Shown: positions 17,485 to 60,424 of the stretch, piece by piece
Layout: every line of letters begins with the position of its first letter
Numbering within the stretch: position 1 is the stretch's first letter
DNA from: Eledone cirrhosa
Taxonomy: Eukaryota
Direction: 5' to 3'
NCBI GenBank assembly: GCA_964016885.1
Contig: OZ024762.1
Span: forward strand, 24,490,001-24,554,000
DNA: 64,000 nucleotides
Notes under the pieces: model-generated
The model's input: the letters and a program-made list of their open reading frames with translations, nothing else
Databases searched by the model: none
What the model was told of the DNA's origin: nothing
Made by a program: the position numbers and the translations under genes

Positions 17485-17874
17485 AAGAAAGAGAAATTAC
17501 CCCACCATATCTGTATGCGTGTGTATACATCATACACACACATTCAAAACAAAGTATAAATCTCTAACTCTCGTCTGTGACATACACACACACATGTGAC
17601 TAATTCTTGATAGCCAAAATATTGTACCAGTCATAACCTCATATCACCTCTGTCATATATTATTTGTTGTTCGTAAATTGTTATATATTGATACATATTG
17701 ATTGATTTACACTTGTTGATATATTGATTTGTTGTATTAAAAACAAAACAAAACAAAAAAAAACTAAAAACAAAACAATTATATATTTGAGAATCCCTAG
17801 ACAAATTCTTCAGGATTTCTCCCAGAAATGTTCAAAGAAATTGAATCTCAGCTCCTTATCTATTTCATACTTAT

Positions 17875-18420
17875 TCGGTAGAGCGTCAGACACCATGCTT
17901 TGCAGCATAGAGTCGTGGCCCTTTACTTTCTGAGTTTCAAATCCGCCGAGGTTTAACTTTGCCTTTCATCCTTACGGGGTCGATAAAATAAAGTACCAGT
18001 AATGCACTGGTAATTGCTGGCCTTGTGCCAAAAATAGAAACAATTATTATTATTAGGGCAGTGGATTGGCAGTATCAGTAGAGGGTCGGACGCCATGCTT
18101 TGCAGCATATAGTTATGCCCCTTTATGGTCTGAGTTCAAATCCCGCCAAAGTTAACTTTGCCTTTCATCCTTATGGGGTTGATAAAATAAAGTACCAGTA
18201 ATGCACTGGGATAATTTCTGGCCTTGTGCCAAAAGTAGAAACAATTATTATTGTTACGGATGGGAGATTGGCAGTATTGATAGCGTATTGGACAATGTTT
18301 CACGGCATAGAGTTATGGCCCTTTATGTTTTCATTTCAAAACCTGCCAAAGTTAGCTTTGTCTTTCATGCTTACGGGGTCGATAAAATAAAGCACCAGTA
18401 ATGCACTGGGGTCGATTTAC
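17875..18420 (+). mobile_element. Cluster of three head-to-tail SINE family A copies
   Basis: Repeated SINE body separated by short (TTA)n. Confidence 0.85.
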
Positions 18421-19255
18421 TCATTATCAATGACTGAATTGTAATTGAAGATGACTAAATTGACGTTTAATGACAGATTTGACATTTAGTGATTGATAAT
18501 TTGACGAAATGGACATCAATAAGGACTACTGATTTGAAAGGAGGAATTCCCTGTAAATAATCTTGCAGAATCTTTTCCAATTACAAGGCTGAGGGTAATG
18601 AGTTGATGTTCATTTGGGAAATTTCTCTGGGTAATGATTTCTAGTATAGAGACATGGCCACTAATTTGGGGGAGGGGAAAGTCGATTAAATCAACACCAG
18701 TATATTACTGGTACTTTATCATCGGCGGGATTTGAACTTTGAAGATAAAGGGCTGTAACTCTATGCTGCAAAGCATGGCGCCCGACCCTCTAATGATTCT
18801 GCCAATCCACCGTCCTTCTCTGGATAAATAATAAGATCAATGACTGAAATTTCAAATTCATAATTAATTAAAATAATAATTATAATTATCTCCCCTTTCC
18901 CACCATTTTTATTATTTACCCATGTCAATCAAGAGAGTTACGAGACACCAACCAATCGAAATATGTATCAAATGAATATTTCTTTGAAAATTTCTGGGAA
19001 TTCCTGTTAGAATCCAAACATAAATTGCACACCCTTCCCCCACACATTCTTCATTAGGAATGTCATGAAAAAATAAACAATGAAAAAGAAAAAAAAAAGA
19101 AAAAGAAAAGGAAAAGCAAATTAAGGCAATAGAAAACAAACAAAAAATATTTTAATACATCTGTGTGTGGGGTGTGCCATTCTCCCCTCCCTCTCTCTTT
19201 GTCTCTTCCTCTTTCTCTCTCTTTTTCACTTGCTGTCTTACTCTTTCCCTCTCTC

Positions 19256-21574: not shown

Positions 21575-21907
21575 CATATGTACATACCCACACTTACACA
21601 CCCTCTCACATACTCGTGTCTACTTATAAATCATGATATGGCAATATATATGGTGGTGTTATTGATGTTATATATACATATATATATTTTAAACAATTAT
21701 TTTTGTAAAACCACAAATAGGGAAAAAAAAAGGAAAAAAAGAATTATAAAACTAGATAAATTAAAAAAAAAAAAATCTTTTCTGATAAGTATATAAAACC
21801 ATGTGAAACATCCCCTTCTGAAAATTTTCTCTTTAAAACATAAACACCAGCACCACATTTTGCACGATTTTAATGCATGCTTGACTTATTGCTATTATCA
21901 GTATTAC

Positions 21908-21947
<40 letters not shown>

Positions 21948-21967
21948 GTCATCATCATCATCGTATA

Positions 21968-22026
<59 letters not shown>

Positions 22027-22035
22027 TTTACCACA

Positions 22036-22532
22036 TGGCGGTGGATTGGCAGAATCGTTAGGGGGTTGGAAAAGTACATACACGTGTTTTTTTCCCAGCT
22101 CTTTACATTCTGAGGTCAAATGCCGCTGAGGTCAACTTTGCCTTTCATCCCTTCGGGGGTCGATAAAATAAAGTACCAGTAATACACTGGGGTCAATTTA
22201 ATCGATTTTTTTTTTTCCTTTTCCCCTAAAATTGCTGGCCTTTTTTTCCAAAATTAGAAATCATTATATTTATTCTTCTTCTTCTTATTATTATTATAGG
22301 GCGGTGGATTGGTATTAATCGGTAGAGCATCGGACAACATGCTTAGCCACATAGAGTTACGGCCCTTTATGTTCTGTGTTCAAACGCTCGCCTAAGGTTT
22401 ACCTTTACCTTTCATCCTTACATGGTTGATAAAATAAAGTACCAGTAATGCACTGGGGTCGATTTAAATTGACTTTTCCTACCCACTTTTCCCCCTTTCC
22501 AAAATTGCTGGCCTTGTGCCAAATCAAGAAAC

Positions 22533-22574
<42 letters not shown>

Positions 22575-23178
22575 CAAGGGCGGTGAATTAGAGGGTTTTA
22601 CGCCCTGCTTTCTAGCATAGTTACGTCCCTTCACGGTTTGAGTTCAAATCCCGCCGAGGTTAACTTTGCCTTTCATCCTTACGGGGTCGATAAAATAAAG
22701 TACCAGTAATGTACTGGGTAATTGCTGGCCTTGTGCCTAAAGTAGAAACAATTATTATTATTATTATTATGGGCAGCATCAGTAGAGCGTTGGTCACTAT
22801 GCTTTGCAGCATAGAGTTATGGCCCTTTAACGAACTACTGTTCAAACCCCGCTGAGGTTAACTTTGCCACAAAATTTGGTGGCCTTGTGCCCCAAAATGT
22901 AGAAACAATTATTATTATAATTATTATTTGGATTGGCAGTATCGGTAGAGTGTCAGACGCTGTGCTTTGCAGCATAGAGTTACGCCCCTTTACAGTTCTG
23001 TTCTTTAACCCCCCCCCCCCCCCCCCCCCGCCGCCGCCGCTGAGGTTAACTTTGCCTTTTATATGTACATTGGGCGATAAAATAAATCGTCTTTAAATTG
23101 ACTTTCCTTCCCGCCCCCGCCCGCCCGTCCCTCTTTCTTTTCAAAATTGCTGGCCTTGTGCCCCAAAATGTAGAAATA
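22036..23178 (+). mobile_element. Cluster of about 5 head-to-tail SINE family A copies/fragments immediately upstream of the RRM exon
   Basis: Repeated SINE bodies separated by (TTA)n. Confidence 0.88.
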
Positions 23179-23256
23179 TTATTATTATTATCATTATTAT
23201 TATCATTACTATTATTATTACTATTATTATTACTACTATTATTATTATTTTCCTCG

Positions 23257-23262
23257 TGCATG
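23257..23262 (+). promoter_or_regulatory. UGCAUG RBFOX-binding element abutting the 3' splice site of the RRM exon
   Basis: tcgTGCATGcag|GGA: the element ends immediately before the acceptor CAG. Confidence 0.75.
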
Positions 23263-23265
23263 CAG

Positions 23266-23358
23266 GGATTTGGTTTTGTAACTTTCCAAAATAGCGCTGA
23301 TGCAGACCGAGCACGTGAAAAGCTGAACGGAACTGTGGTTGAGGGACGAAAAATTGAG
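23266..23358 (+). CDS. RBFOX: RBFOX/Fox-1 family RNA-binding protein, 93-nt exon encoding second half of RRM ([31 protein letters not shown])
   Basis: AG at 23264-65 and GT at 23359-60; phase 0/0; translation nearly identical to the RBFOX RRM (RNP1 GFGFVTF ... [10 protein letters not shown]); same 93-nt length as the vertebrate exon. Confidence 0.97.
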
Positions 23359-23359
23359 G

Positions 23360-23365
23360 TGCATG
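23360..23365 (+). promoter_or_regulatory. UGCAUG RBFOX-binding element overlapping the 5' splice site of the RRM exon
   Basis: GAG|gTGCATG: the element occupies donor positions +2 to +7. Confidence 0.8.
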
Positions 23366-23757
23366 GTTCGCTTCTCAGCTGTGGTGCTTGCAACTACACT
23401 GAAAGCCATTTTTTTCCTTTCTCTTTTCGTCTTCTTCTTCTTCCTTGTCTTCTTCGTCTTCTTTGTCCTCCTCCTCCTTCTACTACTACTTTTTTTAAAA
23501 AATCCTTCATATATCTTCTTTCTTTCTATGTGTTATTTTTTTTAAAAATCTATCTGTCTGTCTGTTTGTCGTTTTTTTTTTTATCATACATGCACATACA
23601 CACATACACACATGTATATATATATGTATAAATATATATATATATTTATATTTATATATATGCAAGTATATATATGTATAAATATATATATATATATATA
23701 TATAGATATATGCAAATATATCTATATATATATATATATATATGCAAATATATCTAT

Positions 23758-24663: not shown

Positions 24664-25112
24664 AGGGCCGTGGATTGGCAGAATCGGTAGAGCGTCAGAC
24701 ACCATGCTTTGCAGCATAGAGTTATGGCTCTTTACATTCTGAGTTAAAATCCTGCCGGTTAGCTTTGCCTTTCATCCTTACGGGGATGATAAAATAAAGT
24801 ACCAGTCATACACTGGGGTTGACTTAATCGACTTTCTCCTCCTCCCCATCAGAATGTTGGCCTTGTGCCTAAAGTAAAAACTATTATTAGAAAAGGTTGA
24901 TTGGCAGAATTGGTAGATCGTCGGACATGCTTTGTAGCATAGAGTTGTGTCTCTTTACACTCTGAGTTCAAATGCTGTCGAGTTTAGATTTGCTTTTCCT
25001 CCTTACAGGATCAATAATATAAAGTACCAGTCACACACTGGGGTCGATTTAATCGACCCCCCCCCCCCCCAAAAAAAAAAATTGCTGGCCTTGTGCCTAA
25101 GATAGAACAATT
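24664..25112 (+). mobile_element. Two tandem SINE family A copies
   Basis: A/B boxes and core motif repeated. Confidence 0.85.
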
Positions 25113-36913: not shown

Positions 36914-36974
36914 GTGAACAATGCCACTGCCCGTGTTATGACCAAAAAAGCCGTTAACCCCGCAATTCCAAATG
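36914..36974 (+). CDS. RBFOX: RBFOX exon, end of RRM (VNNATARVMTKKAVNPAIPN+G)
   Basis: ttag acceptor, gtaagg donor; VNNATARVMT is the conserved RBFOX continuation after RKIE; phase 0 in, phase 1 out. Confidence 0.96.
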
Positions 36975-37989
36975 GTAAGGTACCGTTTTGTTCTTGTCTC
37001 TTTGACGAGCAGAACAGAACAGCACATAAAGCAAGCAGCAATTTTTAATAAGAAAGAAAACGCAAACAAACAAAAAAAATACAAAAACAACAACTACAAA
37101 AATATTTGGAAAAATTGGAGGTGGGATGGAATACAAAAAAAAAACAACAAACAATTAATTATTTCATTATACAAAATCCCAAAACACAATTATTTCCAAC
37201 TCTTCCCCTTACCTACCCCCTACACAAATGAAAAATTCATGGGGCCGAACAACCAGTCAACAAATCCTTATTTGAGTTTTAATAACCCCGACCCTTTTTT
37301 TCACCCTCCTTGGTTTTCAATTTTTTCCCCCCCATACCTGTATTTTTCACTCGATCCCACTCCAAACTTTTTAAAAACACACAAACGACGACCTATTCTT
37401 ATGAAACCATTCCATTCACTAATATCAATTTCTTCTCCTCCCGACCCAATTCTTGCTGAATCTTTTAAATATAATTCTATTTATATTTATCATATACTTT
37501 TTATTTTTAATTAAGTACTTATTTTTTTCTTCCCATTAGTATATATTTCCTTTTAAGGTCATGTAGTCAAATATTTAAACTATTCGAGTTGTCTTGGAAA
37601 CATTCTAATTAATATTCTATTTATTAATTAAACAATAATTTTATTTATTAATTAAACAACAATTACTGAATTCCTATTTAGTAATTTTTTGCTAATTGTA
37701 ACTAAAATCCGTAGGGTTTAATAAACCTAAAACTATTTTTACTTTGCAAATTAAATCTTACTGCAAAATCTTTTAATATGAATGTAATGTGTTTGATAAC
37801 ATTCCTGTTTCAAATTAATAAGAGTCATAAGCCAAAAGAATAATTATAATAGGACAAAGGGAGCAGATATGTCAGGGGGTCTTTGAATTTCTAGTATATC
37901 TATAAACAAACAATAACTGCACAGGCACCAACTCCTTGAATCACATCTGATCCAGCTCACTAGTTTAGGAATGTAATATATATATATGT

Positions 37990-59861: not shown

Positions 59862-60400
59862 CTGGATTGGCAGTATTGTTATTGCCCTTTACTTTCTGAG
59901 TTCAAATCCCACCGAGGTCAGCTTTGCCTTTCATCCTTATGGCGTTGATAAAATAAAGCACCAGTAACACACTGGGGGCAAATTTAATCGAATTTCCCCT
60001 CCCCCAAAATTGCTATAAAATTGCCATGTGCCTATAGTAGAAACAATTATTATTATTATCATTATTATAAGTAGCAGAGAGATTAGCAGTATCGGTAGAG
60101 GGTCGGACGCCATGCTTTGCAGCATAGAGTTATGCCCCTTTACGGTCTGAGTTCAAATCCCGCCGAGGTTAACTTTGCCTTTCATCCTTACGAGGTCGAT
60201 AAAATAATGCAAAGGTCACGTACTGGGGTCTATTTAATCGACTTTCACCTCCCCCAAAAATTGCTGGCCTTGTGACTATACTAGAAATCATTATTTATAA
60301 GTACGAGTAATGCACTGGGGTCGATTTAATCAAATCTCCCCCCTCCCTCCCCGCCCCCAAAAAAACTTTGCTGGCCTTGTGCCTAAATCAGAAACCATAA
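59862..60400 (+). mobile_element. SINE family A cluster ending about 25 nt before the 60425 exon acceptor
   Basis: Three SINE bodies/fragments in tandem. Confidence 0.82.
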
Positions 60401-60424
60401 TTTTTATTTTTCTCTATTTTGCAG

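Follow-up and report, generated by a model that had tools for sequence, protein, structure and literature searches.

RBFOX proteins are master regulators of splicing in nerve and muscle. Autoregulation through exon 6 of mammalian RBFOX2 (Fox-2/RBM9) was reportedly described by Baraniak (2006) and by Damianov and Black (2010), and an overlap of the binding motif with the splice sites may already be found there. In mammalian Fox-2, three UGCAUG precede exon 6 and one follows it, and overexpression results in skipping of the exon (PMC2777236). Rbfox3 lowers inclusion of Rbfox2 exon 6 from 92% to 39–48%, and the corresponding exon of Drosophila is likewise alternative (PMC3126832). A hint of feedback comes from work in the fly (bioRxiv 2021.05.09.443278), and similar autoregulation of C. 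elegans asd-1 is cited as an unpublished observation (PMC2777236). Of all splicing events, that of the RBFOX RRM exon is cited as one of the most ancestral (PMC3140891). Two further observations concern the sites themselves: at calcitonin exon 4, Fox bound to UGCAUG at -34 blocks SF1 at the branch point (PMC2777236), and FOX-1 uses GCACG besides GCAUG (PMC7787662). The fate of the skipped product varies. It is stable and dominant negative for mouse Rbfox1/2 in some contexts, and in chicken Rbfox3, where the downstream sites are predicted activators of the 93-nt exon, the skipped protein Rbfox3-d31 is unstable and rapidly degraded (PMC3575530). In rat, the -93 isoform has been linked to RBFOX3 (PMC5577181). 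bioRxiv 2025.10.28.685214 deals with different exons, and the fly Fox orthologue is no more than cited in PMC3245913. Given the published self-repression in mammals and the alternative status of this exon in Drosophila, the core idea is not new. Our literature search, whose coverage lay outside most subscription journals, returned nothing on the repeat array described below or on the molluscan RBFOX RRM exon.

The window, the 64,000-nt stretch of the Eledone cirrhosa genome analysed here, contains all but the first of the features collected in Table 1. The preliminary description had recognized a 93-nt frame-preserving exon encoding part of an RBFOX RRM, and this identification is upheld: the exon has phase 0/0, its peptide matches Pfam RRM_1, 29 of its 31 residues are identical to those of the RBFOX1/RBM9 RRM in the PDB, and no more than one residue sets it apart from named Octopus RBFOX proteins. 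The peptide of the 61-nt exon is 100% identical to the same Octopus proteins, which also map to exons near 55.4, 58.8 and 60.4 kb. The gene has the hallmark of the family, a single RRM nearly identical to that of RBFOX1/2 followed by VNNATAR, and the exon layout of autoregulation, in which a 93-nt in-frame exon is flanked by a 54-nt exon and the VNNATAR exon. These three exons together cover 41 kb. The donor of the 61-nt exon (36974–36980) reads ATG/GTAAGGTACC, and a second GT five bases further is a possible alternative donor. Upon searching the genome with RBFOX proteins, strong matches were confined to this one locus and matches elsewhere were 23–40% identical; hence, we treat it as the only RBFOX gene. 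With a single gene there would be no cross-regulation by paralogues, unlike the situation in mammals.

Table 1 Features of the RBFOX locus. Positions are those of the window unless a contig is given; negative and positive offsets are relative to the acceptor and donor of the RRM exon.
Feature	Position	Strand	Remark
Preceding exon	C23:24485836-24485889		54 nt; 4.1 kb ahead of window start
Displaced RBFOX site 1, UGCACG	21861..21866	+	-1405 here; about -44..-39 in relatives
Branch-point-like UUAAU	21870..21874	+	candidate A 21873; about -32 in relatives; overlaps site 2
Displaced RBFOX site 2, UGCAUG	21874..21879	+	-1392 here; about -31..-26 in relatives
Tandem SINE-like copies with (TTA)n	21884..23244	+	1,361 nt; lies in the conserved cassette; ends known to within a few bases
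CAG, possible cryptic acceptor	21899..21901	+	first AG past the branch motif, 28 nt after candidate A; candidate from sequence only
Last (TTA)n tract	23176..23244	+	likely present branch-point region; only degenerate nUnAy
Short pyrimidine tract	23245..23256	+	as in relatives (LFSS/LFSL codons of read-through ORFs)
RBFOX site 3, UGCAUG	23257..23262	+	-9..-4; between pyrimidine tract and acceptor CAG 23263-23265
RBFOX RRM exon	23266..23358	+	93 nt, phase 0/0, 31 residues; most of RNP1 to RRM end
Conserved start of downstream intron	23359..23415	+	57 nt; contig of run X9
RBFOX site 4, UGCAUG	23360..23365	+	+2..+7; shares T of donor GT; weak donor GAG/GTGCAT
Next exon	36914..36974	+	61 nt, begins VNNATAR; joins the 54-nt exon on skipping

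It had also been claimed that one UGCAUG adjoins the acceptor of the RRM exon and another overlaps its donor, and both are indeed there (sites 3 and 4). TGCATG is not enriched in the window as a whole, with 51 matches versus 46.45 ± 8.12 and 24 of 100 shuffles reaching 51. GT is followed by GCATG at 5 of the 3629 plus-strand GT dinucleotides in the window, and the only one of its 1379 YAG trinucleotides to be directly preceded by TGCATG is the acceptor of this exon. No such motif is found at the exon ends of the six other exons of the gene that were viewed. Scored against the donor consensus at positions +3 to +6, GAG/GTGCAT matches at one of four, whereas the other six donors reach three or four. 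The donor is thereby the weak element of this exon and the weakest of the seven compared. The acceptor is ordinary in comparison: 12 of the 17 positions from -20 to -4 are pyrimidines and the six other acceptors have 10–15. The earlier statement that (TTA)n has replaced the polypyrimidine tract must therefore be withdrawn, the (TTA)n being the tail of a repeat array. A separate element, UGUGGU(A)GC, recurs 20–35 nt into the downstream intron, at 23379–23390 in the window, at 725–745 of metagenome locus L007 and, as CGST or VVAH, in numerous read-through peptides. The copy in the window contains UGCUUG, a low-affinity FOX motif according to PMC7787662.

The preliminary description had proposed a comparison of orthologous splice sites across bilaterians. 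Protein searches gave read-through ORFs, which continue from this exon into its introns, for other animals, and we used the best 120 of 1862 matches from one search and the best 120 of 149 from another, dropping from the counts spliced forms, duplicates and ORFs with fewer than three residues past the exon. Comparison was at the peptide level and mostly in unnamed related records, the signatures compatible with UGCAUG being VH[VADEG] (motif at +2), VCM (+4) and VPA (+6). The motifs proved to be conserved. Among the best 120 of 1862 matches, obtained with a query that stopped at the exon end, 33 of 35 distinct read-through ORFs have a donor-side signature, versus a null of 67 of 3629 GT positions (1.8%), and upon pooling the best 120 of 1862 with the best 120 of 149 the count became 83 of 86. 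The motif of these 86 ORFs is at +2 in 48, +4 in 28 and +6 in 7. The location of the site differs among lineages but never extends beyond intron base 11, as would be expected if position at the donor were under selection. All 25 ORFs of a subtype labelled vertebrate RBFOX3/1L-like, after its one named member, lack the donor signature in the pooled best-match searches. At the acceptor, CMQ ends 39 of 69 distinct upstream strings, a count biased by both queries having held those residues, and vertebrate-type read-through ORFs have CMQ directly before and VH directly after the exon, as does the window.

At the DNA level we viewed 34 of 80 metagenome loci, and discarding 5 that were spliced, 5 that were not RBFOX and 2 near-duplicates left 22 RBFOX-like loci. 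GCATG is near the acceptor in eight of these, at the donor in six and at both in four. As both sites are present in just 4 of 22 loci and in none of the 25 RBFOX3/1L-like ORFs, the design is not universal. These comparisons indicate that the two-splice-site layout is ancient and widespread, though not universal. The X9 contig, which is from another organism, aligns to 23338–23415 with three substitutions and one gap before it diverges, and donor site 4 is intact in it. Three of the metagenome loci have GC donors at the RBFOX exon (L010:694-699, L011:507-512 and L008:694-699), and in L010 and L011 the donor itself is GCATG, such that the RBFOX motif is the splice site. Others fall into three groups, each of mutually related loci, having different RBFOX exon peptides (L012, L015 and L016; L020, L027, L032 and L055; L018, L021, L023, L024 and L026). 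One group has both sites, one has upstream sites only and one has none at the splice sites. The groups may be paralogues that differ in autoregulation.

Upstream of the exon the window departs from its relatives. In the latter the intron ends in codons of the form [LM]H[DE]FNAC-x-LFS-x-CMQ (for example P0002, P0004 and P0007), and the LHD, MHD or LHE portion encodes site 1 in these three records and in P0292, P0293 and P0408. The latter three have the exon peptide of the window and, as read from their translations, a cassette contiguous with the acceptor; judged by exon peptide and intron start, P0292 and P0408 appear to be from close relatives. A scorpion RefSeq model, P0021, reads ILNACFLFVSCMQ at the intron end, and its cassette is likewise contiguous. 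Codon counting in relatives puts UGCACG or UGCAUG at -44, UUAAU at about -32 and UGCAUG at -31, and UUAAU is a candidate branch point. DNA locus L007 has a U-rich UUAA and then UGCAUG at -26, and its second site is contiguous with the acceptor. A compatible second signature is present in 33 of 62 distinct upstream strings ending in MQ versus 1 of 19 others. In the window LFSSCMQ is at the acceptor and LHDFNAC is away from it at 21860–21880, which puts sites 1 and 2 and the branch-point-like motif 1.36 kb further upstream than in relatives. That match to [LM]H[DE]FNAC is the only one in the 27,376-nt intron (1.6e-5 expected), and the 21-mer containing both sites occurs once in the 3.0-Gb genome. 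Two of the four RBFOX sites are left close to the exon, only one of them upstream, unlike the three upstream of mammalian Fox-2.

The array between the displaced motifs and the acceptor consists of five TTA tracts and four repeat-core copies and contains three B-box-like GTTCAAA motifs. For one repeat copy, 39 further genomic copies with 94–98% identity were found among 40 scored of 727 candidates, and many copies of the unit are present elsewhere in the window. The unit is short, interspersed, in high copy number and has a simple-repeat tail, as expected of a SINE; a target-site duplication is unreadable within the (TTA)n. Other tandem arrays of the unit are present at 17871–18422, 24664–25056 and 59872–60411, which suggests insertion of newer copies into the (TTA)n tails of pre-existing ones. 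We read the 1,361-nt array as an insertion into the conserved RBFOX cassette. Assembly error is unlikely because the repeat copies have diverged from one another and similar arrays lie elsewhere in the window, although the assembly may itself derive from the two sequencing runs that contained every sampled word. No strict yUnAy branch-point motif is found in the 150 nt before the acceptor. All 19 nUnAy matches from -95 to -17 are in the last TTA tract, the nearest upstream AG is at 23172 and the AG-free zone is about 90 nt. The displaced branch point is unlikely to serve the real acceptor, given the 50 AG dinucleotides in between.

Evidence for skipping came from a protein search with the C-terminal part of Octopus RBFOX. 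Among the 118 proteins found, 103 include the exon, 14 join NERGSK straight to VNNAT and 1 lacks the junction. Twelve of the 14 are named isoforms having exactly the 31-residue skip and come from seven species, the bivalves Ostrea edulis, Magallana gigas, Crassostrea virginica and Ruditapes philippinarum and the gastropods Pomacea canaliculata, Babylonia areolata and Littorina saxatilis. One XP_ accession of the skipped isoform was found per species, and XP_ isoform models are usually based on RNA-seq. The skipped proteins of Potamilus and Pinctada were not counted as isoforms, being GenBank gene predictions in which the exon was perhaps missed. None of the 11 named cephalopod proteins that span the junction is of the skipped form, few cephalopod models being in existence, and the form is also absent from the Haliotis, scallop, Saccostrea and Lineus proteins seen. 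Cluster-member lists gave 68 further proteins, 66 with the exon, none skipping it and 2 without the junction, but we give these little weight because skipped forms cluster apart and are under-sampled there. Of 20 sequencing runs listed, 3 had at least half of 15 sampled words and 1 was recorded as RNA. Contigs of runs X17, X9, X3 and X2 gave one match to the 93-nt exon, in X9, and this was unspliced and may be DNA or pre-mRNA; runs X17, X9, X7 and X10 gave no contig on the 54-nt exon. Neither comparison gave an exon junction, and such blanks say nothing about skipping. The RefSeq models of the scorpion Centruroides vittatus (P0021 and P0402–P0404) have about 22 additional residues between the 54-nt exon and the RRM exon; these resemble the intron end, ILNACFLFVSCMQ, and could be a retained short intron, use of an upstream acceptor or a model artefact.

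The reading we consider probable is that abundant RBFOX binds both remaining sites and blocks the acceptor and the weak donor, giving in-frame skipping and a protein unable to bind RNA; the competition and its outcome are what we infer from the layout. When RBFOX is abundant it would occupy sites 3 and 4, competing with U2AF at -9 to -4 and with U1/U6 pairing at +2 to +7. The exon would then be skipped in frame with loss of most of RNP1, yielding an RNA-binding-dead RBFOX. At the ancestral -31 site RBFOX would have competed with SF1 for the branch point. Three of the four sites coincide with the branch-point motif, the pyrimidine tract and AG, and the donor, the pattern predicted by direct competition, and steric blocking at the splice sites of the exon is the presumed mode of action. 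Since chicken Rbfox3-d31 is rapidly degraded (PMC3575530), skipping need not yield a dominant negative. Following the insertion, branching would take place at one of the degenerate motifs of the (TTA)n tract, covered by no RBFOX site, and the feedback loop would now operate on two of four sites and probably need more RBFOX as trigger. FOX-1 repression is proportional to site number (PMC7787662), and therefore a two-site version would need more protein. A broader proposal, which we advance only tentatively, is that a four-site cassette common to vertebrates, molluscs and arthropods was cut by the SINE array, that branching in the (TTA)n weakens the feedback and raises the level of active RBFOX, and that the stranded branch point may serve an RBFOX-controlled cryptic acceptor.

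The same scaling of repression with site number (PMC7787662), together with the removal of two of four sites and the branch-point motif to 1.36 kb from their position in relatives, could instead mean that the two remaining sites are relics and that the exon became effectively constitutive in the octopus lineage after the array was inserted, with feedback off. The lack of skipping in the 11 named cephalopod proteins agrees with this, but cephalopod annotation is shallow and other mollusc proteins seen also lack the skipped form. Moreover, neither remaining UGCAUG deviates from the motif, another organism (X9) has kept the donor together with 57 bases of the intron, and the donor remains the weakest of seven. 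We think loss of the feedback unlikely. Skipping with competition at the splice sites is also preferred to regulation through cofactors or the flanking introns, in which RBFOX would cause intron retention or cryptic exons followed by decay and no dominant negative would arise. Rbfox3 is known to induce also cryptic NMD exons around Rbfox2 exon 6 (PMC3126832) and Fox-1 can repress an exon via the downstream intron (PMC2777236). The +6 variant covers the U1 site only partly, and the X9 contig, which may be DNA or pre-mRNA, runs unspliced across the donor. Against these points, three of four sites sit on core splicing signals and an in-frame skipped product is annotated in seven molluscs, and we judge such a non-steric route to be quite improbable.

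The displaced 21-mer is intact and an AG lies at the usual distance, 28 nt, past its candidate A; hence, one could suppose that the displaced branch point is still used with the CAG at 21899–21901 to give a cryptic repeat-derived exon or decoy controlled through sites 1 and 2. The pyrimidine tract of this candidate acceptor is weak, however, the candidate derives from inspection of the bases, and intactness could simply mean that insertion was recent (matches elsewhere are 94–98% identical), all of which makes this a long shot. Finally, RNA structure as the agent, either by pairing of the acceptor CAUGCA with the donor UGCAUG or by a 9-bp helix (21849–21857 with 23380–23388) looping the exon out, is scarcely credible: both complements are present and the helix has a probability near 1 in one 1.57-kb fold, but this is an edge effect of a probably chance complement (probability 0.005 in a 2.0-kb fold, rank 252 of 2323 tiles), the acceptor–donor pairing probability is 0.0, folding of the exon region does not surpass that of shuffled sequence (z 0.22), and no matching upstream arm is seen in L007 or the read-through peptides.

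The locus can be set beside the described systems. It shares with mammalian RBFOX2 exon 6 a homologous 93-nt in-frame RRM exon and an ancestral layout of three upstream motifs and one downstream, but two of the upstream sites and the branch-point motif are here behind the 1,361-nt array. Drosophila Rbfox1 and C. elegans asd-1 are likewise invertebrate Fox genes with an equivalent alternative exon or reported autoregulation; however, in the ORFs we take as arthropod-type the donor site is at +4 (VCM; L007) rather than +2, and L007, which is of this type, keeps at -26 the UUAAU-UGCAUG element that is displaced in the window. Calcitonin/CGRP exon 4 has UGCAUG beside the branch point in the geometry of the ancestral -31 site, although that exon belongs to a target gene and is no case of autoregulation, and the corresponding site is displaced in the window. 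Chicken Rbfox3 has the same 93-nt exon and a skipped product without RNP1, but its three downstream UGCAUG are predicted activators of inclusion, the protein without the exon is unstable, and ORFs of its type lack the donor-overlapping site present here (0 of 25 in the pooled best-match searches).

The self-limiting RBFOX switch is thus likely to operate in Eledone cirrhosa too. The switch itself is already known, invertebrates included; what is new is the cassette split by a repeat array. Sequence and annotation evidence now extends the switch to molluscs, and direct competition is favoured as the mechanism by the placement of motifs, across bilaterians, on the core signals for splicing. The array provides a natural mutant, an octopus-like genome in which half of the cassette is parted from the exon. 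Comparison with relatives having the whole cassette could reveal how site number and branch-point coverage set the feedback threshold, and bears on whether a transposon retuned a neural splicing regulator in octopus.
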